A stretch of DNA of 10,730 nt, taken from IMG/VR virus record IMGVR_UViG_2703718851_000007. One strand, given 5' to 3'. Source of the DNA: a virus. Its lineage: Duplodnaviria; Heunggongvirae; Uroviricota; Caudoviricetes. The notes under the pieces were generated by a model. It saw nothing but the letters and a program-made list of their open reading frames with translations, was not told where the DNA came from and searched no databases. Made by a program: the position numbers and the translations under genes. This document shows, piece after piece, positions 1 to 10,730 of this stretch (the stretch's first letter is position 1; each line of letters opens with the position of its first letter).

Positions 1-249
1 TTAGTCGTCATTGTCCATTGAGTTAGCTTTAGCGGCTGCAACAGCTTTTGCATCCTGCTCGACGAATTTTCTAGCTGCTTTCCTAAGCTGAGTGATTTTT
101 TCTGGGTCAGTAGATGGGTCTACAATAACTGCACCACGCCCTACGACCTTGATGTTTTTAACACCAGATTTGTTCAAACGATCGGCCATGGCTTGTCCGC
201 CTTTGACCAAATCATTCAGCCCAAACATCTTCATGACTAGTTCTGACAT
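1..249 (-). CDS. Small hypothetical protein (82 aa), Lys/Ala-rich, family not recognised
   Basis: Complete ORF on minus strand: ATG at 249-247, TAA at 3-1. Perfect Shine-Dalgarno AGGAGG (plus-strand CCTCCT 255-260) 5 nt upstream of the ATG. Product MSELVMKMFGLNDLVKGG...KNIKVVGRGAVIVDPS...; no confident family assignment by eye. Confidence 0.55.
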   Translation of the reverse strand: MSELVMKMFGLNDLVKGGQAMADRLNKSGVKNIKVVGRGAVIVDPSTDPEKITQLRKAARKFVEQDAKAVAAAKANSMDNDD

Positions 250-1198: not shown

Positions 1199-1886
1199 TT
1201 ATCAGCTTAACGTTGCGAAGCTTCAGGCAGCGGCATTTTCTCAACTGTCAGATTCTGACCCGTCAAAATCTGACGCATCAAAATCTGACCCGTCAAAATT
1301 TGATGCGTCGAAATCTGGCAAAAAAGCGGGTTTTCACCCGTCAGAATCTGGCGGGGATCCGTCAGTAAAATCAAAACATGATCCGTCAGATAAAAAAACT
1401 TCTCGTCCGGACGCTTCGCAACCGGACACGCAGACGGCTGAACAGGAGTTTTTAACTCGCCATCCTGATGCGGTTGTATTCAGCCCTAAAAAGCGCCAGT
1501 GGGGAACGCAGGATGATTTGACCTGCGCACAGTGGCTCTGGAAAAAAATCATCGCCCTGTACGAGCATGCCGCCGAATGTGACGGCGAGGTGGTTCGTCC
1601 CAAAGAACCGAACTGGACAGCCTGGGCAAACGAAATTCGCCTGATGTGTGTGCAGGATGGTCGTACTCATAAACAAATCTGCGAGATGTACAGCCGCGTC
1701 AGTCGCGATCCGTTCTGGTGCCGTAACGTGCTCAGCCCGTCGAAGCTGCGGGAAAAATGGGATGAGCTTTCCCTGCGCTTATCGCCGTCCGTCAGCACGT
1801 ACACAGAAAAACGCGAAGACCCGTACTTCAAAGCCAGTTACGACAATGTGGACTACAGCCAGATCCCGGCAGGATTCAGGGGGTGA
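1167..1886 (+). pseudogene. Lambdoid replication-initiator (O-like) gene, 3' fragment carrying internal iterons; no start codon
   Basis: Plus frame is open from 1167 (after TAG 1164-1166) to TGA 1884-1886 with no ATG or GTG; the first TTG is at 1518 (the 122-aa ORF in the track). The frame encodes a pentapeptide-repeat linker (SDPSK-SDASK-SDPSK-FDASK) across the 15-bp iterons, then a C-terminal domain (...CAQWLWKKIIALYEHAAECDGEVVRPKEPNWTAWANEIR...). Iterons inside the initiator gene followed by an A+T-rich stretch is the lambda O/ori layout. Family assignment is by architecture, not a recognised sequence match. Confidence 0.45.
1249..1323. repeat. Five tandem 15-bp direct repeats (iteron-like, putative ori)
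   Basis: Units TCAGATTCTGACCCG / TCAAAATCTGACGCA / TCAAAATCTGACCCG / TCAAAATTTGATGCG / TCGAAATCTGGCAAA at 1249, 1264, 1279, 1294, 1309. Degenerate copies follow at 1341-1355 and 1386-1400, with an A+T-rich tract at 1362-1400. Confidence 0.7.
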
Positions 1887-1888
1887 TC

Positions 1889-2377
1889 ATGAGTCTTTTG
1901 AATGACGTTCAGAAATTCATTGAAGCCCATCCGGGGTGTACTTCCGGAGACATTGCGGATGCTTTTGCAGGTTACTCACGGCAGCGCGTTCTGCAGTCAG
2001 CAAGCAAGTTACGTCAGAGTGGTCGTGTGGCTCACCGTTGTGAAGGGGATACACGCAGACATTTCCCGCGCCTGACTGAGAGAGCGCAGGAGGCGGAACC
2101 GCAACCAGTTCGTGAAACCAGACCTGTGCGCAATTTCTATGTCGGCACTAACGATCCCCGGGTGATTTTGTGCCTGACCCGCCAGGCGGAAGAACTGGAG
2201 TCCAGGGGCTTATACCGTCGTGCTGCAACGGTGTGGATGGCGGCATTCCGTGAAAGCCACTCCCAGCAAGAGCGAAACAATTTTCTTGCGCGTCGTGAGC
2301 GGTGTTTACGGAAAAGCAGCAAGCGCGCTGTATCGGGTGAAGAGTGGTATCTGTCAGGGAATTACGTGGGGGCGTAA
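1889..2377 (+). CDS. PerC-family-like transcriptional regulator (phage-encoded)
   Basis: ATG at 1889 preceded by GGGGGTGA; the track ORF begins at GTG 1883. Stop TAA 2375-2377 overlaps the next start (TAATG). C-terminal segment ...TRQAEELESRGLYRRAATVWMAAFRESHSQQERNNFLARRERCL resembles the PerC/Pch motif (KGLWRRAA...W) as recalled; the N-terminal 100 aa are unassigned. Confidence 0.45.
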   Translation: MSLLNDVQKFIEAHPGCTSGDIADAFAGYSRQRVLQSASKLRQSGRVAHRCEGDTRRHFPRLTERAQEAEPQPVRETRPVRNFYVGTNDPRVILCLTRQAEELESRGLYRRAATVWMAAFRESHSQQERNNFLARRERCLRKSSKRAVSGEEWYLSGNYVGA

Positions 2378-2703
2378 TGACGACGTTAACTCAATGCCAG
2401 CAGCAGGTGCTGGATATGCTGATTTCTTACCAGAAAGAACGTGGCTTCCCGCCAACCAATCAGGAGGTGGCTACCATGCTGGGATACCGTTCAGTGAATG
2501 CAGCGGTGGAGCATCTTCGCGCACTGGAGAAAAAAGGCGTCATCACGATAAAGCGTGGCGTGGCCCGGGGGATAAAGCTTCATACCGCGGTGAAGGACGA
2601 CGACAGCGAGGCGGTCGGGATTATCCGCTCACTGCTTGCCGGTGAGGAAAACGCCAGGCTGCGTGCAGCCCACTGGTTACATGAGAGGGGCCTGAAAGTA
2701 TGA
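2377..2703 (+). CDS. LexA-like DNA-binding-domain protein lacking the S24 peptidase domain
   Basis: From ATG 2377: MTTLTQCQQQVLDMLISYQKERGFPPTNQEVATMLGYRSVNAAVEHLRALEKKGVITIKRGVARGIKL... aligns residue-for-residue with the LexA N-terminal winged helix ([68 protein letters not shown]), including the recognition-helix residues (S.NAA.EH). A hinge-like LLAGEEN (compare LexA VAAGEP) is present, but the protein stops about 20 residues later; the Ser/Lys peptidase domain is absent. The track ORF starts at GTG 2344; ATG 2377 is preferred by homology and coupling. Confidence 0.7.
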   Translation: MTTLTQCQQQVLDMLISYQKERGFPPTNQEVATMLGYRSVNAAVEHLRALEKKGVITIKRGVARGIKLHTAVKDDDSEAVGIIRSLLAGEENARLRAAHWLHERGLKV

Positions 2704-3305
2704 AGTTGATCCTTCCTTTCCCGCCCAGCGTGAACACGTACTGGCGACACCCCAACAAAGGGGCATTTGCTGGTAAGAGCCTGATAAGCGCGGCGGGGCG
2801 AAAATTTCAGAGCGCGGCGTGCGCAGCAATAGTTGAGCAGTTACGTCGTCTGCCGAAACCAACGTCGGCACCTGCTTCAGTGGAGATCGTGTTGTTTCCT
2901 CCGGATAAACGCACCTGCGCCAGCGCACCGCTGGATCCGCTGACCCGCGCCGTGGTGATTTCCCTGTTTACCTGGCGGCGGGCGGAGCCTGATGACAATG
3001 CCGACGTCCCGATGGGATGGTGGGGGGATACCTGGCCTGCGGTACAGAATGACCGTTACGGCTCCCGACTGTGGCTGCTTCAGCGCAGCAAACTGACCAA
3101 TCAGCTGGTGCAGACGGTAAGGGGGTATATCCGCGAATGCCTGCAATGGATGATTGATGACGGCGTGGTGTCCCGTATTGATCTGGATATTCGCCGCACC
3201 GGGATTAATGAACTGGGTAACAGTATCACTCTCTGGTGTCGTGACGGACCGGTAATGATTTCTTTTGATGATCTGTGGAGTGCGATAACGCATGGCGGAC
3301 AGTGA
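2700..3305 (+). CDS. Chimeric ORF: RusA-like (Holliday-junction resolvase) N-terminal fragment fused in frame to a GPW/gp25-like baseplate wedge C-terminus
   Basis: N-terminus MKLILPFPPSVNTYWRH...VEIVLFPPDKR parallels RusA (ITLPWPPSNNRYYRH...IRIECHMPDRRRRDLDN), but the catalytic Asp cluster is missing. C-terminal part (...RYGSRLWLLQRSKL...WMIDDGVVSRIDLDI...) resembles gp25/GPW baseplate proteins and sits immediately upstream of baseplate J. Start ATG 2700 overlaps the previous stop (ATGA). Confidence 0.45.
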   Translation: MKLILPFPPSVNTYWRHPNKGAFAGKSLISAAGRKFQSAACAAIVEQLRRLPKPTSAPASVEIVLFPPDKRTCASAPLDPLTRAVVISLFTWRRAEPDDNADVPMGWWGDTWPAVQNDRYGSRLWLLQRSKLTNQLVQTVRGYIRECLQWMIDDGVVSRIDLDIRRTGINELGNSITLWCRDGPVMISFDDLWSAITHGGQ

Positions 3306-4350
3306 ATTTCAGCGCCCGACGCTGGCAGAAAATATCAGTATGCTCCGTAACGATTTATTCGCCAGGCTGGACGTCAGCGACACGCTCCGGCGCATGGATG
3401 AAGACGTGCGGGCAAAGGTGTATGCGGCGGCGCTGCATACGGTTTACGGTTACATCGATTATCTGGCAATGAACATGCTGCCTGACCTGTGCGATGAGTC
3501 CTGGCTGGCGCGACATGCTGCGATGAAACGGTGTCCGCGCAAGGGGGCCACGGCTGCCAGCGGGTATATGCGCTGGGAAGGTGTCAGCGATGGCCTGAAG
3601 GTGACCGCCGGGAGTGTTATTCAGCGCGATGACCTGGTTCAGTACACGGCAACTGCCGATGCAACCAGCTCCGGTGGTGTCCTGCGCGTGCCGATCGCCT
3701 GCTCAAGTGCAGGTGCGGTCGGTAACGCTGACGACGGTACGGCATTAATCCTGGTCACGCCGGTGAATGGTCTGCCGTCTTCCGGTGTGGCTGACACCCT
3801 TACAGGCGGATTTGATACTGAAGAGCTGGAAACGTGGCGCGCCCGCGTCATTGAGCGGTATTACTGGACGCCTCAGGGCGGGGCTGACGGGGACTATGTC
3901 GTCTGGGCTAAAGAAGTGCCCGGCATTACCCGCGCATGGACATACCGTCACTGGATGGGAACGGGAACTGTCGGTGTGATGATTGCCAGCAGTGACCTGA
4001 TTAATCCCATTCCGGAAGAATCAACGGAAACGGCAGCAAGACAACATATCGTGCCACTGGCCCCGGTGGCAGGCTCTGATTTGTATGTATTCAGGCCGGT
4101 GGCACATACGGTGGATTTTCATATCCGCGTGACGCCGGACACACCAGAAATACGAGCCGCCATCACCGCGGAGTTGCGTTCGTTTCTTCTGCGTGATGGT
4201 TATCCGCAGGGAGAACTGAAGGTATCGCGTATCAGTGAGGCGATTTCCGGTGCGAACGGGGAATACAGCCATCAGTTGCTTGCACCGGTGGACAATATCT
4301 CCATTGCGAAAAACGAACTGGCGGTACTGGGGACGATTTCATGGACGTGA
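3292..4350 (+). CDS. Baseplate J-like protein (P2 gpJ / Mu gp47 family)
   Basis: 352-aa ORF. C-terminal motifs (...[33 protein letters not shown]...[24 protein letters not shown]...) parallel P2 gpJ (...ISVTSPSPACVTISVLS...LYLYPGPESEPIRAAAVKKLEAYI...). Gene order W-J-I-fibre is canonical. Start overlaps the upstream ORF by 14 nt. Confidence 0.8.
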
Positions 4351-4925
4351 CAAACGATGATTACATCCGCCTGTTATCGGCACTGTTGCCGCCCGGTCCG
4401 GCGTGGTCAGCCAGCGATCCGGCGATTGCCGGTGCGGCACCGTCATTAACCCGTGTTCATCAGCGTGCGGATGCCCTGATGCGGGAGCTGGATCCGCGCA
4501 CCACCACTGAACTGATAAACCGCTGGGAGCGTCTGTGCGGTCTGCCGGATGAATGTATTCCGGCGGGAACGCAGACCCTTCGCCAGCGTCAGCAACGGCT
4601 GGATGCGAAGGTTAACCTGGCGGGCGGCATCAACGAGGATTTTTATCTTGCACAGCTTGCTGCCCTGGGCAGACCAGATGCCACCATCACGCGATACGAC
4701 AAAAGCACGTTCACCTGCTCATCGGCCTGTACTGACGCGGTGAATGCGCCGGAATGGCGGTATTACTGGCAGGTCAACATGCCAGCCACCACCAACGCCA
4801 CCTGGATGACATGTGGCGATCCCTGTGATTCCGCACTGCGTATCTGGGGTGACACCGTTGTCGAGTGTGTGCTTAACAAACTCTGCCCGTCGCATACCTA
4901 CATAATTTTTAAATATCCGGAGTAA
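4341..4925 (+). CDS. Phage tail protein, YmfQ/DUF2313-like (gpI position)
   Basis: 194-aa ORF whose ATG 4341 overlaps the baseplate J stop (ATGGACGTGA). It occupies the slot between baseplate J and the tail fibre. Resemblance to the e14 YmfQ-type tail protein is from recollection, not an alignment. Confidence 0.5.
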
Positions 4926-4928
4926 TCC

Positions 4929-5507
4929 ATGCATCGTATAGACACGAAAACCGCGCAGAAGGATAAGTTCGGCGCGGGTAAGAACGGTTTTACCCGTGGT
5001 AACCCCCAGACTGGCACACCAGCCACCGATCTGGATGATGACTACTTTGACATGTTGCAGGAAGAACTTTGTAGCGTTGTTGAGGCATCCGGTGCCAGTC
5101 TGGAGAAGGCGCGGCACGACCAGTTGCTTACCGCGCTTCGTGCTCTGCTGTTAAGCCGCAAGAATCCGTTTGGTGATATCAAATCGGACGGCACGGTGAA
5201 AAAGGGTATTAACTTTCGCAGCCTGACCGACAGCATAGATACGTCTTCACCAATGGGACGCTTTTTCTTCCATGTCATGGGCGCACTTGCCGAAATGGAA
5301 AGGGAGCTGATAGTCGAACGTACCAGGGCGGGATTGGCTGCGGCTCGTGAAGAAGGGCGAATAGGTGGGCGTCGATCAAAGCTAACTGATGAACAGTGGG
5401 CGCAGGCAGGAAGGTTGGTTGCAGCAGGTGAATCACGACAGCGTGTGGCATTAATTTACGATGTTGGGATATCGACGCTATATAAAAAATTTCCGGCAAC
5501 CAGGTAA
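4929..5507 (+). pseudogene. Fusion of a tail-fibre N-terminal constant region (about 92 aa) to the C-terminal half of a Pin/Gin/Hin-family DNA invertase
   Basis: ATG 4929 with GGAG RBS. Residues 93-192 ([100 protein letters not shown]) are near-identical to the Pin/Gin C-terminal half including the HTH. The invertase N-terminal catalytic domain (active-site Ser about residue 10) is absent. Residues 1-92 ([47 protein letters not shown]...) look like a phage tail-fibre N-terminus. Confidence 0.75.
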
Positions 5508-5575
5508 ATCATTGAGTTATGCGACGATGATGACTGATGGTGGCTAATGCCATTGATCTCCGTTTAAATAAAAAC

Positions 5576-5595
5576 TACTGTATATAATATCAGTA
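5576..5595. promoter_or_regulatory. LexA operator (SOS box) overlapping the putative umuDC promoter
   Basis: TACTGTATATAATATCAGTA: palindromic CTGT-N8-(T)CAG with an AT-rich spacer, 17 bp upstream of the umuD ATG. Compare the E. coli umuDC box TACTGTATATAAAAACAGTA; the right half TCAG also occurs in the uvrA box. A TATAAT hexamer (5583-5588) lies inside the box. Confidence 0.7.
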
Positions 5596-5611
5596 TTAAT
5601 TGACGGTGATT

Positions 5612-6034
5612 ATGATGCAGTTTTTCACTCCCTCCGGGTTGCGTGCAGTGCAGCCGCTTCCACTCTATGGCGATCTTGTACCCTGTGGTTTCCCAAGCCC
5701 TGCTCAGGACTACGTTGAACAGCGTATCGATCTTAACGAGCTACTGATACAACACCCCAGCGCCACGTACTTCGTTAAGGCATCTGGTGACTCGATGATT
5801 GATGCCGGGATCGGCGAAGGCGATTTACTGGTAGTGGACAGTTCACGCAAGGCAGAGCACGGCGATATCGTTATTGCTGCGGTGGACGGGGAATTTACCG
5901 TTAAGCGCCTACAGTTATGGCCAACTGTCCAGCTTAACCCTGAAAACCGCGCCTGGTCGCCTATCATCATCGGGAGCGAAGAAACGCTCGATGTTTTTGG
6001 TGTGGTGACGTTCATCGTGAAATCGACGGGTTGA
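5612..6034 (+). CDS. umuD: UmuD (SOS mutagenesis protein, S24 peptidase-like, DNA polymerase V subunit)
   Basis: Strong similarity to E. coli UmuD over the whole length: cleavage site LVPC-GFPSP, catalytic Ser (KASGDSM) and Lys (EFTVKRLQL) all present. ATG 5612 chosen (MMQFF...); the track starts at TTG 5600. Stop TGA 6032-6034 sits 2 nt before the umuC ATG. Confidence 0.9.
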
Positions 6035-6036
6035 TC

Positions 6037-7305
6037 ATGTACGCGTTGTGTGATGTGAACTCGTTCTATGCCTCCTGTGAAACTGTATTTCGCCCGGATC
6101 TCAAAGGTAGGCCGGTTGTGGTGCTTTCCAACAATGACGGTTGTGTTATTGCCCGCAGCACAGAGGCAAAGAAACTGGGTATCAAAATGGGTGAGCCGTA
6201 CTTCAGGCAGAAGGACTTTTTCCGGCGCCATGGGGTGGTGTGCTTCAGCAGCAACTATGAGCTGTATGCGGATATGTCTAACCGGGTGATGACCACGCTG
6301 GAAGAAATGTCGCCGCGCTGTGAAATTTACTCGATAGACGAGGCATTTTGTGACCTCACTGGTGTACGTAACTGTCGTGATCTGACTGATTTTGGCCGTG
6401 AAATCCGTGCTACTGTTCTGCAGCGAACGCATCTGACAGTGGGTGTTGGCATTGCCCAGACCAAGACGCTGGCCAAGCTGGCCAACCACGCGGCCAAACA
6501 ATGGCAGCGGCAGACGGGCGGGGTGGTAGACCTGTCCAGTGTCGATCGCCAGCGCAAACTGATGGCCGCGCTGCCGGTTGATGAAGTCTGGGGCATCGGT
6601 CGGCGTATTTCGAAAAAACTGGAGGCGATGGGGATCAAGACCGTACTGCAACTCGCTGATACGGACATCCGTTTTATCCGTAAACATTTTAATGTCGTGC
6701 TGGAGCGAACGGTGCGTGAGTTACGCGGAGAACCCTGCCTGGCACTGGAAGAATTCGCGCCAGTGAAACAGGAAATTATCTGTTCCCGCTCTTTTAGCGG
6801 TCGTATCACGGAGTATGAAGAGATGCGCCAGGCGATCTGCAGCTATGCCTCGCGGGCGGCAGAGAAACTGCGTGGCGAGCACCAGTATTGCCGTTTTATC
6901 TCGGCGTTTGTGAAGACCAGCCCGTTCGCACTGAACGAGCCCTATTATGGCAATAATGCCTCCGTGAAGCTTCTGACGCCTACGCAGGACAGTCGGGATA
7001 TCATCAGTGCAGCCATCCGCTGTCTGGACGCCATATGGCAAGACGGATATCGGTATCAGAAAGCCGGGGTGATGTTGGGTGATTTCTTCAGTCAGGGCGT
7101 GGCCCAGCTCAACTTGTTCGATGATAACGCGCCGCGCCCGGGCAGTGAGAAACTGATGGAAGTGCTGGATCACCTCAATGCCAAAGGCGGGAGGGGGACG
7201 CTGTATTTTGCAGGACAGGGTATCCAGCAGCAGTGGCAGATGAAACGGGAAATGCTTTCTCCACGTTACACCACCCGATTCTCTGATCTACCCGTTGTCA
7301 GGTGA
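6037..7305 (+). CDS. umuC: UmuC (Y-family DNA polymerase V catalytic subunit)
   Basis: [22 protein letters not shown]...[11 protein letters not shown]...[29 protein letters not shown]... is near-colinear with E. coli UmuC (MFALCDVNAFYASCE...), with the catalytic Asp/Glu residues conserved. ATG 6037 preferred over TTG 6031. Confidence 0.92.
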
Positions 7306-7383
7306 TTTTCCGGTGACAGATTCTTCGGAAAACGGTGGATGAGTTTATTAGAAACGATAAATCAAATGTTCTTATTTTTGATT

Positions 7384-7420
7384 ACTAAGTCTCAGTTATA
7401 CAATTCGGCTGAGACTTAGT
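7384..7420. repeat. Perfect 12-bp inverted repeat (hairpin) between convergent umuC and the KAP NTPase gene
   Basis: ACTAAGTCTCAG (7384-7395), 13-nt loop, CTGAGACTTAGT (7409-7420). Lies at the GC-content transition; not followed by a clean U-tract on either strand. Confidence 0.5.
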
Positions 7421-7428
7421 ATGCCAAT

Positions 7429-9177
7429 TTATAGGCAAGAAATTGCGTGTCTTACTGTATTGTTTAAATCATATATCGCGCCATATTTAAAACTTTCTTG
7501 CTTACCTATGAAATAAATGTCAAGTTTTTGATTGAGGTATATAAGGCGCTGCTTTTCATTTGTGGCAAACTGAGATATGTTACTAATTCTATAATTACTT
7601 CTTAAAAAAGCGTTGAATTGCTCTATATCTTTAATGCTCCATTCTTTTAAAATGCACTTGGTCAAAAATGGTGCGCCAAGTACTTCTAGCGTTTTATAGT
7701 TTCCCATGGGATCTAATTTGAGTAATAAGTTAACATCAAATAAAGCCCAACCATCAGTTTCAATAATTTCCTTAATTGTCTTTAAGTTTTTTCTCTTTTC
7801 AATATTATTATGACGGCCTGATAATATTGAAAATATAAGTTTCCCATCATCAAAGCCACTAGTCCAACTACTGATTGGATTGTTGTTATGAAATTCAAAG
7901 TAAGTAATAATGTCCTCGTCACTAAATTCGAGTGATTTAGAACTCATGAACTGCAATGTTAGTAATGATGATTTTGGAAGATATTTATGATAAGTCAAAT
8001 ATTCATAGTTCTGAACCGCCCTAAGCCATTGGTGCAAATCACATGGTATTGTTCTAGAAATTAAACCAATAATCGTGGGGAAAAATTCTTTTTCATCTGT
8101 CTCCTGTAGTTCTGGTCGAGTTGAAACTGCAATATCAATTGTACTTAAAGGTGTTGGCACATAAAAAACATCGTCCAATATATCATAAAGAGAAACATGA
8201 CCACTGTAGTAATTTTTAAGGTGAATATTAATTTTATAATTGTGTAATGTAGACAAAAGTCTCGGTTCATGTGGATTTTCATCGCTGCTGGAATTTTGGG
8301 GTGGGATATGCTGGATGCTGTCAATGATCAGTTCGTCCATGGATTTGTTATGGATAAATAACAAGATAAAATATGACAAAATTGAGCTTAGTATGGTTTT
8401 AGAGGCGATTTTCCACTCTAGTTCAGGGTGGTTTTCTGCGTGTAAATATAATGGAAGTGCAGTATTTAAACACCTCATTAAAATTCTTATGTTAACTATG
8501 TTATGGTATGATATTATTTCTTCGAAAATCATTTTGTCTTCAGTGGGGAAGTACTGTAGTTTTTCTTCAATTATTCTCATATCTAATATGTCGCGAGGGT
8601 TTGGGTTGTAATGAAGTGAATCAGAAATAATTTTTTCTTTATGTTCTAATGACAGGTGGGATTCGGCAGATGTATTAGATATAACAATAAAATCCAAACT
8701 AGAGATTTTTGAGGTTGAATATAACGAATGACAATAAGTTAGTATTTCATTGGCCAGTGAGGGAGTGCTTAATCGCTCAATGTCATCTAATATAAATATG
8801 CCACTGAGTTTGGAGAGTATGTTCTCTCTTACACTTGAACCAATGGAACTGAACACACCATTAAGCACATTGGCACTAGCGGGAGAACCACTGCTTACAC
8901 TACCCAAACCAGAAATAGTATCTAACCCAGACTTAAGAGTGTCTATATCTTGAAGATAGTAGCAGTCAATAATCTTTGCTTTGAAATCTGCAAGAGACTT
9001 AACGCCTAGTAATGAAATATAATAAAACACATTAAGATCATAAAAACGAGGAAATACATTTTTAATAAAAAAAGTTTTACCTGTTCCCCATTTTCCATCA
9101 ATAAAAATAAGTCCATCTCTTTCGGATTGTAGAAGATGAACTATTTTTACAATCAAATTGCTATTAGAGTTTTCCAT
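7429..9177 (-). CDS. KAP-family P-loop NTPase (582 aa), AT-rich, horizontally acquired
   Basis: Walker A FIDGKWGTGKTFF at residues about 25-37. Walker B with the KAP-type Asp-Asp...Arg signature GIFILDDIERL about 90 residues later. An internal hydrophobic segment (TILSSILSYFILLFIH) is consistent with the membrane insertions described for KAP NTPases. Codon usage is dominated by AAT/ATT/TTT/AAA; GC is roughly 30% by eye versus about 50% for the flanking umuC. Confidence 0.65.
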   Translation of the reverse strand: MENSNSNLIVKIVHLLQSERDGLIFIDGKWGTGKTFFIKNVFPRFYDLNVFYYISLLGVKSLADFKAKIIDCYYLQDIDTLKSGLDTISGLGSVSSGSPASANVLNGVFSSIGSSVRENILSKLSGIFILDDIERLSTPSLANEILTYCHSLYSTSKISSLDFIVISNTSAESHLSLEHKEKIISDSLHYNPNPRDILDMRIIEEKLQYFPTEDKMIFEEIISYHNIVNIRILMRCLNTALPLYLHAENHPELEWKIASKTILSSILSYFILLFIHNKSMDELIIDSIQHIPPQNSSSDENPHEPRLLSTLHNYKINIHLKNYYSGHVSLYDILDDVFYVPTPLSTIDIAVSTRPELQETDEKEFFPTIIGLISRTIPCDLHQWLRAVQNYEYLTYHKYLPKSSLLTLQFMSSKSLEFSDEDIITYFEFHNNNPISSWTSGFDDGKLIFSILSGRHNNIEKRKNLKTIKEIIETDGWALFDVNLLLKLDPMGNYKTLEVLGAPFLTKCILKEWSIKDIEQFNAFLRSNYRISNISQFATNEKQRLIYLNQKLDIYFIGKQESFKYGAIYDLNNTVRHAISCL

Positions 9178-9254
9178 TATAATTGTTATCCTAATTTAAA
9201 GAGGTGTAAATAAAGCATGAAATAGTATAATGCTAATTTGAGGTAAAAACATTA

Positions 9255-9890
9255 TTATTCAATTGAAACAATAAGATATTCACCTTGATTTTTCGCATTA
9301 CCCATCGCTCGCGTAACTGCATGCCAGATAAACTTGTCAGCTTGCACGGCACCGTAGTCGGTAATCGCTTCTGCTTCCTTGCCTCGGCGTCTTGGCGCAT
9401 CCCATTCCCGGGCTGCCTCCGGTGACAATACAAGTGGCTGTCGGTCGTGTATATCAACCAAGCCTTCATCGGCCGCAGACGTCACTATTAAAAAACCTTC
9501 GGCCTCGTCACTACGTTCGAAGGGGCGCTGCCGATTGCCGCCATGAATATTGGCTACCCATCAGTTCGGTGAATGAAGTAGGGTTGTTTTTTTGCTATCT
9601 TCGGTCTTGTCGAGTAGGGCACCGAAGTTACCTTCAACGCCCCCTCTAAGAACCGTGCGTGAGAGTTTCCAGCTCACACGGCTCAAGCCTTATCAAACAC
9701 CACTGTGAAATGATGCGGCAGGTGCAGTCAGACGCGTGGTCCGGGATCGGATATAATCTGTCCAATCCGTGTCATATGGATTAAGTGCAGATGCGACGAG
9801 TCTGTGACGGACAATTTTGACGCTCTGAGCGTGAACCAGCCTCAGTATTGTAACTTTCCCCGTATCAGTGTCCCGATAAAGACCTGACAC
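9255..9890 (-). pseudogene. SRAP/YedK-like (DUF159, abasic-site processing protein) pseudogene, 5'-truncated with nonsense and frameshift lesions
   Basis: C-terminal ORF (9255-9485) reads ...AADEGLVDIHDRQPLVLSPEAAREW...GKEAEAI...FIWHAVTRAMGNAKNQGEYL, matching the YedK C-terminus (AADQGLVDIHDRRPLVLSPEAAREW...SWHPVSRAVGNVKNQGAEL). Upstream, a different frame gives KKQPYFIHRTDG-stop-PIFMAAIGS (YedK KKQPFFIYRADGQPIFMAAIGS: a Q codon is replaced by TAG), then a frameshift. Further upstream fragments (HLHL, GKVTIL) sit in two other frames. The N-terminal MCGR catalytic-Cys region is not present. Confidence 0.65.
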
Positions 9891-9896
9891 CCCATT

Positions 9897-10730
9897 TTAC
9901 TGCTGCCACCAAGCATATAGATCTAGACCTTTGGTAATTACACCTAAGAAAATCCCTAAAACTATTAATCCAGTCACTAATGGGTGTTCTTTGAGCCTCA
10001 TCGTTAACCAATATGGATGCCAGCTTCTTGGCCAAAACCATTTATTGTTAGTTTTGAGAGTACGATCATGAATCCGCTCAGCAATATTACAGAGTATGTC
10101 GACCTTTCGTAATGTAGACATTTCTAGCTCTCTATACTTACCTTTGACATATGCCTCGGCTTCCTCAGCGCCGGCTAAGACATCTTTATCAGCGATACCA
10201 TTTTTTTCAACAAGAGCTAACATTCTACCTGCACGGCCACTTTTGGCGGTATGCCCAATATAGCTTCGTCCATATATAGAAACGGCAGCTCTCGCTAAAT
10301 CGAGTTTTCTGTCATCAGTAAGTATAAAGGGCTCGCCACCTAGGACTGAAAATCTATGCTGTAAGGCCTGAAATCCGTAATTGTTATCTCGCATGTTCCA
10401 ATGCAGAAATGTGCATTGTGCGTATCTTTTCAGGAATGTAAAGTAGTTATCTAATAGATGATGCTCAAGGATATCGAGATTTTTTTCATCTGAAACATCA
10501 AGACCTAATAATTCTGCGGATCTATTAAGAGCCCAATGATCTGTTTGCCCACTGCCTAAATTTCTGACAGCAATAGAGGTGATCCTTGTGGATTTACCGC
10601 CCACAGCATCATAAAAAGATTCACATGAATAATGGACAACGTAGCATTGATGCGCATTTGCAAAACATTTTTCGATAAAACCAATGTACTCGCTGCGATC
10701 TCTAATCTGTTGTTTGATGGAAGATGACAT
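9897..10730 (-). CDS. Hypothetical protein (277 aa) with a C-terminal transmembrane helix; function unknown
   Basis: ATG is the last 3 nt of the window (10730-10728), so the true start cannot be confirmed; stop TAA at 9899-9897. C-terminus ...EHPLVTGLIVLGIFLGVITKGLDLYAWWQQ contains a roughly 19-residue hydrophobic helix. GC is lower than the host-like segments (about 40% by eye). No recognisable catalytic motif by eye. Confidence 0.5.
   Translation of the reverse strand: MSSSIKQQIRDRSEYIGFIEKCFANAHQCYVVHYSCESFYDAVGGKSTRITSIAVRNLGSGQTDHWALNRSAELLGLDVSDEKNLDILEHHLLDNYFTFLKRYAQCTFLHWNMRDNNYGFQALQHRFSVLGGEPFILTDDRKLDLARAAVSIYGRSYIGHTAKSGRAGRMLALVEKNGIADKDVLAGAEEAEAYVKGKYRELEMSTLRKVDILCNIAERIHDRTLKTNNKWFWPRSWHPYWLTMRLKEHPLVTGLIVLGIFLGVITKGLDLYAWWQQ

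Follow-up and report, generated by a model that had tools for sequence, protein, structure and literature searches.

Error-prone polymerases on mobile elements, SRAP genes beside UmuCD, and umuCD genes retained by prophages have already been reported (PMC3765255 with its reference 14; PMC6908951). Among the prophages at the sap locus of Klebsiella pneumoniae, only int and umuCD are conserved (PMC6908951). Another described system is e14 of E. coli K-12, which lies at icd, has an icd-specific integrase and carries mcrA after pinE. Here we describe a umuDC operon in a 10,730-nt stretch of viral DNA (IMG/VR record IMGVR_UViG_2703718851_000007), the whole of which is called the window below. Phage passengers of this kind are known, and the operon is no new system; a search of the literature turned up no description of this particular umuDC prophage of the E. 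coli ssrA or e14 type. The whole window very probably comes from within an e14-family prophage at ssrA that has undergone heavy deletion and has an intact umuDC cargo, most likely encoding a Pol V-like polymerase.

The umuDC operon and its control region

The two genes and the elements upstream of them are located as follows.

5553–5595, plus strand: putative umuDC control region, with TTGATC (5553–5558), a 17-nt spacer and TACTGT (5576–5581), overlapping the LexA box
5576–5595, plus strand: LexA (SOS) box TACTGTATATAATATCAGTA, 20 nt, 39 nt before the umuD ATG
5583–5588, plus strand: TATAAT within the control region
5615–6034, plus strand: umuD, predicted autoproteolytic Pol V subunit, 139 aa
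6037–7305, plus strand: umuC, predicted Y-family catalytic Pol V subunit, 422 aa

The stretch from 5615 to 7305 encodes full-length UmuD and UmuC. UmuD matches Pfam Peptidase_S24 with 101.7 bits and belongs to the NCBIfam family NF007621, whose model it matches with 162.5 bits (cut-off 110). The cleavage site Cys24–Gly25 (VPC24G25FPSP) and the dyad Ser60/Lys97 (SGDS60M, FTVK97R) have the same residue numbers in E. coli UmuD. UmuC matches the Pfam domains IMS, IMS_HHH, IMS_C and DUF4113, as well as NCBIfam NF002955 over positions 1–422 of 422 with 870.7 bits (cut-off 431); the best Pol IV model reaches 188 bits, which is under its own cut-off. UmuC also carries D6, Y11, D101 and E102, together with QLNLF at 357. 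From their roles in E. coli UmuC, we take D6, D101 and E102 to be the catalytic carboxylates, Y11 the steric gate and QLNLF the beta-clamp motif.

The umuC gene lies directly downstream of umuD in one operon; a gap of 2 nt separates its ATG at 6037 from the stop codon of umuD (6032–6034). This ATG is backed by all homologues, whereas the TTG at 6031, the sole umuC start that would give an overlap with umuD, is unsupported; in core E. coli the two genes overlap as TGATG. The original prediction had described the locus as a umuDC orthologue with overlapping genes and an SOS box of its own. The orthology is borne out, since both proteins are full length, pass their NCBIfam models and retain all catalytic and cleavage residues, whereas the overlap has to be replaced by the gap. 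As for the SOS box, TACTG-N10-CAGTA has a single exact match in the window, TACTGTATATAATATCAGTA, and allowing one mismatch yields two matches in the window against 0.24 expected. The box agrees with the LexA consensus at 16 of 20 positions, the four mismatches including position 15, and each of the remaining CTG-N10-CAG sites in the window agrees at 10 of 20 positions at most. A LexA box is likewise found at −39 in the core E. coli umuDC operon and at −35 to −40 in all six relatives compared, and the TTGATC element upstream is also kept in the core operon. A consensus promoter and terminator scan of 5300–7600 returned no sigma-70 promoter upstream of umuD; the promoter hexamers at 5553–5588 are proposed on the basis of conservation with the core operon. 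No CTG-N10-CAG box was found upstream of SRAP in five relatives or upstream of the KAP-like and 277-aa genes described below, and a reading of the whole cargo block as a single SOS-regulated cassette was dropped for this reason.

By homology with the E. coli system, LexA would bind 5576–5595, overlapping the umuDC promoter, and would be cleaved once DNA damage has activated RecA, allowing umuDC to be transcribed. UmuD would then cleave itself at Cys24–Gly25 via Ser60 and Lys97, and UmuD′2C with RecA-ATP would carry out translesion synthesis on the beta clamp via QLNLF. A lysogen would thus gain a second polymerase beside the core copy, so that a strain with the element is predicted to have two SOS-inducible mutagenic polymerases; its stress-induced mutation rates could rise, for example under fluoroquinolone exposure.

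The prophage around the operon

To the left of umuDC, the window contains the following features.

1–249, minus strand: hypothetical ORF of the prophage left arm, 82 aa
545–1186, minus strand: C-terminal fragment of an ssrA-type tyrosine integrase, 213 of about 391 aa (Pfam Phage_integrase)
1254–1317, no strand assigned: 15-nt tandem repeats, 4.3 copies (Tandem Repeats Finder), within the replication (HTH) gene remnant
1518–1886, plus strand: 3′ remnant of a replication HTH gene, from synteny with e14 and the Res13 prophage
1883–2377, plus strand: PerC/YfdN-family regulator (Pfam PerC), with the same synteny
2344–2703, plus strand: phage regulator with a LexA DNA-binding domain (Pfam LexA_DNA_bind, E = 3.7e-19), which relatives list as a LexA family regulator
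2700–3305, plus strand: RusA N-terminus joined in frame to a GP46 C-terminus (Pfam GP46 on residues 81–183)
3292–4350, plus strand: baseplate J/gp47 gene
4341–4925, plus strand: YmfQ/Gp48 tail baseplate gene
4929–5507, plus strand: tail-fibre (Stf) N-terminus joined in frame, at about 5200, to the C-terminal half of a Pin-type invertase

The ORF at 1–249 and the integrase fragment recur with 100% identity in prophages at the ssrA locus of many E. coli genomes. The N-terminus of the integrase is deleted at about 1179, where the match to other genomes stops, and the fragment is 90–95% identical to the full-length integrases of two related sequences (L002 and L005). The tandem repeats match in position the HTH-domain gene upstream of yfdN in e14, and they are possibly iterons of the phage's replication origin. 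From PerC through the LexA-like regulator, RusA, GP46, baseplate J, YmfQ and Stf to Pin, the genes are 96–99% identical to e14-type prophages; the baseplate J and YmfQ genes are 97–99% identical to annotated genes in four related sequences (L001, L003, L004 and L006). The junction of the RusA/GP46 fusion lies at about 2902, where the full-prophage matches start, and is the scar of a large internal deletion that removed lysis, terminase, head and tail genes. In the Stf/Pin fusion, the Stf matches stop at 5202–5205 and the Pin matches run over 5199–5498 at 84%; the Pin part covers only positions 91–144 of the Pfam Resolvase profile, plus HTH_7, and lacks the catalytic N-terminus.

To the right of umuDC, three further features follow.

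7429–9177, minus strand: KAP-like P-loop NTPase, 582 aa (Pfam KAP_NTPase, 28.9 bits)
9255–9592 (approximate), minus strand: SRAP (YedK-family) pseudogene, C-terminal part alone left
9897–10730, minus strand: hypothetical protein, 277 aa, last gene ahead of the attachment site and ssrA

The GC content is 31–35% at about 7300–9250, which includes the KAP-like gene, and about 41–43% in the 277-aa gene, against 52–61% in the phage part. The KAP-like gene, a candidate defence gene, matches PDC-S49 among the candidate systems of PADLOC (E = 7.8e-14). It is a secondary cargo inserted between umuC and SRAP, and E. ruysiae, the Citrobacter relatives and strain 100181 lack it at the corresponding position. 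The SRAP remnant covers only positions 148–220 of the 222 in the NCBIfam profile NF007413, its N-terminal catalytic end (Cys2) being missing. RefSeq lists SRAP in three matching genomes as frameshifted, with an internal stop and without the N-terminus, and relatives hold an intact SRAP at the corresponding position. For the 277-aa protein, no family was found in Pfam, NCBIfam or PADLOC. The KAP-like and 277-aa genes are found only in the three E. coli genomes that carry this umuDC, and this restriction, together with their very different GC content, suggests that the phage already had umuDC when this part of the right arm joined it.

Of 5,426 complete E. coli genomes, 3 (about 0.06%) carry this umuDC at 99% identity or above, and the right arm (7306–10730) is restricted to the same three. 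Each of these genomes has a second umuDC match in the same record, which is taken to be the core operon; the canonical umuDC was seen between hlyE and dsbB in another strain. The evidence thus supports the umuDC of the window as a second, accessory copy and not the core E. coli umuDC. In all three genomes, umuDC has the Pin-type invertase of an e14-family prophage on one side and ssrA on the other. Res13-Sevr-PER07-33 contains an intact 42-kb prophage including umuDC, in the order integrase, tail genes, invertase, umuDC, KAP-like gene, SRAP remnant, 277-aa gene and ssrA, flanked by a 159-nt ssrA-derived direct repeat that contains the last 35 nt of ssrA (its 3′ end). The near-identical elements of Res13 and SZQ1 have both the attachment-site repeats and the integrase. 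The window stops short of both attachment sites, its boundaries being drawn from three near-identical genomes, and ssrA lies about 170 nt past the 277-aa gene, i.e., past the right end of the window, in L001, L002 and L006.

These results bear on several further statements of the original prediction. It had proposed that umuDC may be phage-borne or phage-adjacent cargo outside its canonical context; a phage-borne copy agrees with the repeat-bounded prophage of Res13 and with the hlyE–dsbB location of the core copy elsewhere. The phage tail and invertase debris that it placed on one flank is the Stf/Pin fusion, and the AT-rich DNA with a dead SRAP gene on the other flank corresponds to the 31–35% GC region and the C-terminal SRAP fragment. 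The opposite view, that umuDC and its flanks are conserved core genome, fails on their distribution. It had also suggested that the stretch from 1200 to beyond 10730 may be one mobile element with its other attachment site beyond the window. A single element is indeed supported and that site is ssrA itself; the start, however, lies left of position 1, since the integrase fragment (545–1186) and the ORF at 1–249 belong to the element.

Origin and state of the operon

In the UmuC phylogeny that had been proposed as a check, the window groups with the Citrobacter prophage copies at 100% bootstrap, separately from the clade of DsbB-flanked Escherichia core UmuC (also 100%) and far from MucB, which together with the IncFIB plasmid copies forms outgroup clades. 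The deep nodes have less than 50% bootstrap, with phage-linked and core copies interleaved, so that only the Citrobacter-plus-window clade and the Escherichia core clade are firm, and for this reason neither a single phage UmuC clade nor a donor is claimed. The amino acid identity of UmuD is 72.7% with core E. coli UmuD and 97.1% with the copy in the Citrobacter sp. R56 prophage; the corresponding values for UmuC are 86.7% and 96.0%. At the nucleotide level, umuDC is about 75% identical to the core copy with synonymous sites saturated (dS 2.8), in line with the predicted divergence from E. coli K-12. For UmuC, identity falls to 55% with MucB of R46 and to 65% with the IncFIB plasmid UmuC, the plasmid UmuD homologues are 46–47% identical to the window UmuD, and all but 34 of the best 5,000 plasmid records fall below 80% identity. 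A plasmid (MucB-like) origin is ruled out by these identities and by the tree, in a comparison in which MucB and the IncFIB copies stood for the plasmid and ICE groups (MucAB, ImpAB, SamAB and RumAB). The dN/dS of umuC is 0.035–0.057, and about 0.05 against the Citrobacter copies at a dS of about 0.35–0.40, showing that umuDC is under purifying selection.

A synteny comparison, likewise proposed with the original prediction, finds the order of invertase, umuDC and SRAP again in prophages at other sites and in phage genomes. The arrangement of invertase, umuDC, SRAP and attachment site recurs in sister prophages at proL, icd, a trp-adjacent site and the Klebsiella sap locus; the Citrobacter prophages with this module lie at an icd fragment and beside trp, and the Klebsiella sap-locus prophages have lambda-type tails. 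In strain 100181, at tRNA-Pro, the slot holds DUF3037, a HipA-like kinase, DinI, umuDC and SRAP, and deposited phage genomes with umuDC comprise PHB10, Oslo and ST846-OXA48phi9.2. The slot after the invertase is a variable cargo site, which holds mcrA in e14 and three hypothetical genes in TA8571.

In the preferred reading, a prophage would have integrated at the 3′ end of ssrA with umuD, umuC and originally SRAP as its post-invertase cargo. Its phage functions would then have decayed, with the integrase truncated, the invertase halved and the repressor, lysis, head and most tail genes gone, whereas umuDC would have stayed intact. It is quite unlikely that umuDC and its right flank are instead a non-phage island that first occupied ssrA, beside which an e14-type prophage later integrated to form a tandem array. 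Such an island would fit the GC contents of the KAP-like and 277-aa genes, which are unlike those of the phage part and of umuDC, as well as the position of the integrase at the end far from ssrA. It would also fit E. ruysiae, where umuDC and SRAP lie beside ssrA and no phage gene can be recognised upstream, just a transposase fragment and a DUF826 ORF. However, a search of the Res13 prophage for an internal copy of the 159-nt repeat found none, so that no ssrA-derived repeat separates the invertase from umuDC. Moreover, the order of invertase, umuDC and SRAP is tied to tail genes at at least four other sites and to two tail morphotypes, the phage genomes PHB10 and Oslo carry umuDC between tail-fibre genes and integrase, and the Citrobacter sp. 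R56 prophage has nearly the same sequence between the invertase stop codon and umuD. Extremely improbable is an ancestral chromosomal umuDC beside which the prophage remnant landed: the 87% identity of UmuC to core E. coli and the equal distance of the LexA box from the start codon would agree with it, but the operon occurs in only three genomes, each with a second match taken as core, is strongly diverged from the core copy at the nucleotide level, is enclosed by ssrA-derived repeats and groups, with good support, apart from the Escherichia core genes.

A separate question is whether the operon inside this decayed prophage is an inert relic, neither expressed nor active any more. Nearly all neighbouring phage genes are truncated or fused, SRAP is a pseudogene and the scan gave no canonical promoter. 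We nevertheless regard such a relic as rather unlikely, because both ORFs are full length with every catalytic, cleavage and clamp-binding residue, the dN/dS against the Citrobacter copies is low, the regulatory region is conserved, and the protein sequence is unchanged on at least 183 contigs.

It is conceivable, though doubtful, that the attachment-proximal block (DinI)-UmuD-UmuC-SRAP is a phage-selected DNA-damage-tolerance cassette and no random passenger. In that case, temperate enterobacterial phages, which DNA damage induces, would turn to their own Pol V, with SRAP as an abasic-site shield, for copying damaged phage template or for raising the survival and mutability of the lysogen. 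This would explain why the block persists when the remaining prophage is lost, as in E. coli, E. ruysiae, Citrobacter and Klebsiella. More generally, mutagenesis genes move on temperate phages among Escherichia, Citrobacter and Klebsiella, and the practical value of the present analysis is the correct annotation of this operon as an accessory prophage copy and not the core umuDC.

Comparison with known systems

The operon resembles chromosomal E. coli umuDC in gene order, in the lengths of its products (139 and 422 aa), and in the cleavage site, the Ser/Lys dyad, D6/D101/E102, Y11 and QLNLF. It differs from the core operon in its location in a prophage at ssrA, in the 2-nt gap, which is a 1-nt overlap in the core operon, and in its separate clade. 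With MucAB (R46/pKM101) and the IncFIB plasmid umuDC it shares the two-gene architecture and the location on a mobile element, whereas the sequences are only 55% (MucB), 65% (IncFIB UmuC) and 46–47% (UmuD homologues) identical.

Among phages, the temperate Escherichia phage PHB10 and Salmonella phage vB_SosS_Oslo likewise have umuDC between the tail-fibre genes and the integrase/attachment region, and PHB10 has SRAP beside the integrase and a LexA box at −35. Their UmuC is 85% identical to that of the window; however, both phages have other backbones without an invertase and different neighbouring cargo. The Klebsiella sap prophages share the invertase, umuD, umuC and SRAP at the host-junction end, with a 91% identical UmuC, and in them too (including ST846-OXA48phi9.2) the phage backbone decays and umuCD is kept. 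They differ in the sap site, a lambda-type GpJ tail module, an intact SRAP and an extra 140-aa gene between invertase and umuD, unlike the window.

The backbone is of the type of e14 of E. coli K-12, from PerC/yfdN, the LexA-like regulator and RusA to baseplate J, YmfQ, Stf/Tfa and Pin. The backbone genes show 96–97% nucleotide identity between the two, and both elements have a cargo slot between the invertase and the attachment site. In contrast to e14, the element in the window has an ssrA-type integrase, and its cargo consists of umuDC, the KAP-like gene, the SRAP remnant and the 277-aa gene.

Distribution and attachment site of the umuDC prophage

The stretch 5508-7305 was searched against 5,426 complete E. 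coli genomes, and a match with at least 99% identity was found in only three, i.e., CP55_Sichuan, SZQ1 and Res13-Sevr-PER07-33 (Res13), each of which has two matches. The remaining umuDC matches are the canonical copy, which is flanked by hlyE and dsbB and is about 75% identical. The right arm (7306-10730) is likewise confined to these three genomes, whereas 2,163 genomes contain the integrase end (1-1179). Thus, a common prophage backbone carries rare cargo.

In each of the three, the block sits between a Pin-type invertase and ssrA, which starts about 170 nt past the window end and is the other attachment site expected beyond it. Res13 carries a complete prophage of about 42 kb in the order integrase, early genes, YmfK repressor, replication genes, PerC, methylase, LexA-like regulator, RusA, Q, lysis genes, terminase, head, contractile tail, baseplate, tail fibres, invertase, umuDC, KAP-like gene, SRAP remnant (with an IS3 beside it), 277-aa gene and ssrA. 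A 159-nt direct repeat (94% identity), composed of the final 35 nt of ssrA and a further 124 nt, lies at both ends of this whole prophage-to-ssrA stretch, and no internal copy was found in the Res13 element. The same integrase is present in TA8571, where the left repeat (40 nt) lies about 900 nt to the left of the equivalent of window base 1, so the whole window appears to be internal to the element. The phage-cargo interpretation is supported; the originally suggested mobile element running past 10730 stands, but its start has to be moved from 1200 to left of window position 1. The repeat length varies, being 159-190 nt in Res13 and SZQ1 (35 nt of ssrA and about 124 nt downstream) versus 40 nt in TA8571.

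Attachment repeats at ssrA
L001 25894-26052 and L005 10731-10888: Res13 sequences
L002 13904-14089: SZQ1 sequence
L007 8068-8107: TA8571 sequence

Gene content and decay of the window

The window was mapped from an ORF listing and family scans.

Features of the window
1-249, minus: small hypothetical ORF
545-1186, minus: tyrosine integrase, C-terminal 213 aa
1518-2377: replication gene remnant, then PerC-family gene
2344-2703: regulator with LexA DNA-binding domain
2700-3305: in-frame RusA'::'GP46 fusion
3292-4925: baseplate J and YmfQ
4929-5507: tail-fibre N-terminus fused in frame to the C-terminal half of a Pin-type invertase
5576-5595: LexA box
5615-6034: umuD
6037-7305: umuC
7429-9177, minus: KAP-like P-loop NTPase, 582 aa, in DNA of 31-35% GC
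about 9255-9592, minus: SRAP C-terminal fragment
9897-10730, minus: 277-aa ORF without known family

Only a remnant of a prophage survives in the window: deletions with junctions near 1179, 2902 and 5200 have taken away most of the phage. Both large deletions left in-frame chimeric ORFs, one joining the RusA N-terminus to the GP46 C-terminus and the other the tail-fibre N-terminus to the Pin C-terminal half. Since the junction of the latter falls in the invertible tail-fibre region, the invertase may have mediated this deletion. Within the phage replication gene remnant, a 15-nt unit, TCTGACCCGTCAAAA, is repeated in 4.3 copies (1254-1317); these repeats look like origin iterons situated within an initiator gene, lambda O being an example. 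The 277-aa ORF, the final gene ahead of ssrA, has a hydrophobic C-terminal stretch and no match in Pfam, NCBIfam or PADLOC.

The umuDC operon and its probable control

The identity of the operon is confirmed by curated NCBIfam models, which UmuC passes with 870.7 bits over its full length (cut-off 431) and UmuD with 162.5 bits (cut-off 110). All key residues are in place, i.e., Cys24-Gly25, Ser60 and Lys97 in UmuD (139 aa), and D6, Y11, D101 and E102 in UmuC (422 aa), which also has the clamp motif QLNLF at 357. One detail had to be corrected: the genes were said to overlap, as they do by 1 base in the core E. coli operon, whereas here 2 nt separate the umuD stop codon from the umuC ATG at 6037, a start backed by all homologues. 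The umuC dN/dS values, 0.035 versus the core copy and 0.053-0.057 versus Citrobacter copies, indicate purifying selection.

The SOS box attributed to the operon was also found: TACTGTATATAATATCAGTA at 5576-5595 is the sole exact TACTG-N10-CAGTA in the window (2 matches versus 0.24 expected when one mismatch is tolerated). It agrees with the consensus at 16 of 20 positions, other CTG-N10-CAG sites in the window reaching at most 10. Every relative compared has the LexA box at -35 to -40, and an upstream TTGATC element is common to the window and core operons. In all likelihood, umuDC acts here as a Pol V under LexA repression. By homology, RecA*-mediated LexA cleavage would derepress umuDC, UmuD would process itself to UmuD', and UmuD'2C-RecA-ATP would perform translesion synthesis on the clamp. 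No LexA box for SRAP was seen in relatives, and a co-regulated SOS cassette including SRAP is therefore not claimed.

Relation to other umuDC modules

A neighbour-joining analysis of 92 UmuC sequences (100 bootstrap replicates) puts the window UmuC and Citrobacter prophage copies in one clade and the DsbB-flanked Escherichia core copies in a separate one, each with 100% support; MucB, at 55% identity, and the IncFIB plasmid copies, at 65%, fall outside as outgroups. The deeper nodes do not support a single phage clade or donor. The island UmuC of E. ruysiae (L086) falls in the core clade (90% bootstrap), apart from the window's, a hint that core and island copies may have exchanged sequence. 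Two assemblies, 'Chryseobacterium sp. 18061' (L026) and 'Pseudomonas lundensis I31' (L074), carry enterobacterial-type umuC (88% and 71% identity), L074 placed among Serratia copies and L026 with DinI and SRAP neighbours as in enterobacterial copies; both are probably contaminated or mislabelled.

The backbone is e14-like, but in e14 at icd, mcrA directly follows pinE, whereas umuDC follows the invertase here; TA8571 has three hypothetical genes in this slot. In strain 100181, a sister prophage at tRNA-Pro reads pinE, DUF3037, HipA-like kinase, DinI, umuD, umuC, intact SRAP and tRNA, an arrangement degraded in LP50-1. The closest proteins (UmuC 96.0%, UmuD 97.1% identity) are from Citrobacter, in the same phage family beside an icd fragment or trp, with SRAP following. 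A Klebsiella lambda-tailed prophage at the sap locus ends with invertase, umuDC and SRAP, with one extra gene on either side of umuDC; int and umuCD were the sole conserved genes in a published comparison of Klebsiella sap prophages (PMC6908951). In the deposited phages PHB10 and Oslo, umuDC lies between tail fibres and integrase, and PHB10 and ST846-OXA48phi9.2 carry SRAP as well. Across these arrangements, the slot after the invertase is a cargo site and the umuDC module moves with phages.

In E. ruysiae (L086 7582-10491), umuDC and an intact SRAP sit right beside ssrA, and all that lies upstream is island debris, namely a transposase fragment and a DUF826 ORF. This arrangement suggests that the KAP-like and 277-aa genes are later insertions in the window's lineage, the SRAP N-terminus being lost along the way. 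The KAP-like gene, an insertion that separates umuC from the SRAP remnant in only 3 of the 5,426 genomes, has a PADLOC match to PDC-S49, a candidate defence family (E=7.8e-14), and may be an anti-phage gene in the cargo slot.

The finding is ordinary. An association between error-prone polymerases and mobile elements has been published (Permina et al. 2002, reference 14 of PMC3765255), and SRAP neighbours UmuCD and is found in temperate phages (PMC3765255). Literature searches turned up no publication that describes this E. coli ssrA/e14-type umuDC prophage itself. Of 80 species-representative loci, 30 have SRAP, DinI or an invertase within 8 kb. In Pseudomonas (L094, L098, L100, L101), SRAP is directly upstream of umuD, divergent and about 140 nt apart, whereas in enterobacterial prophages it is downstream of and convergent with umuDC; the umuDC-SRAP linkage is therefore old and its arrangement variable.
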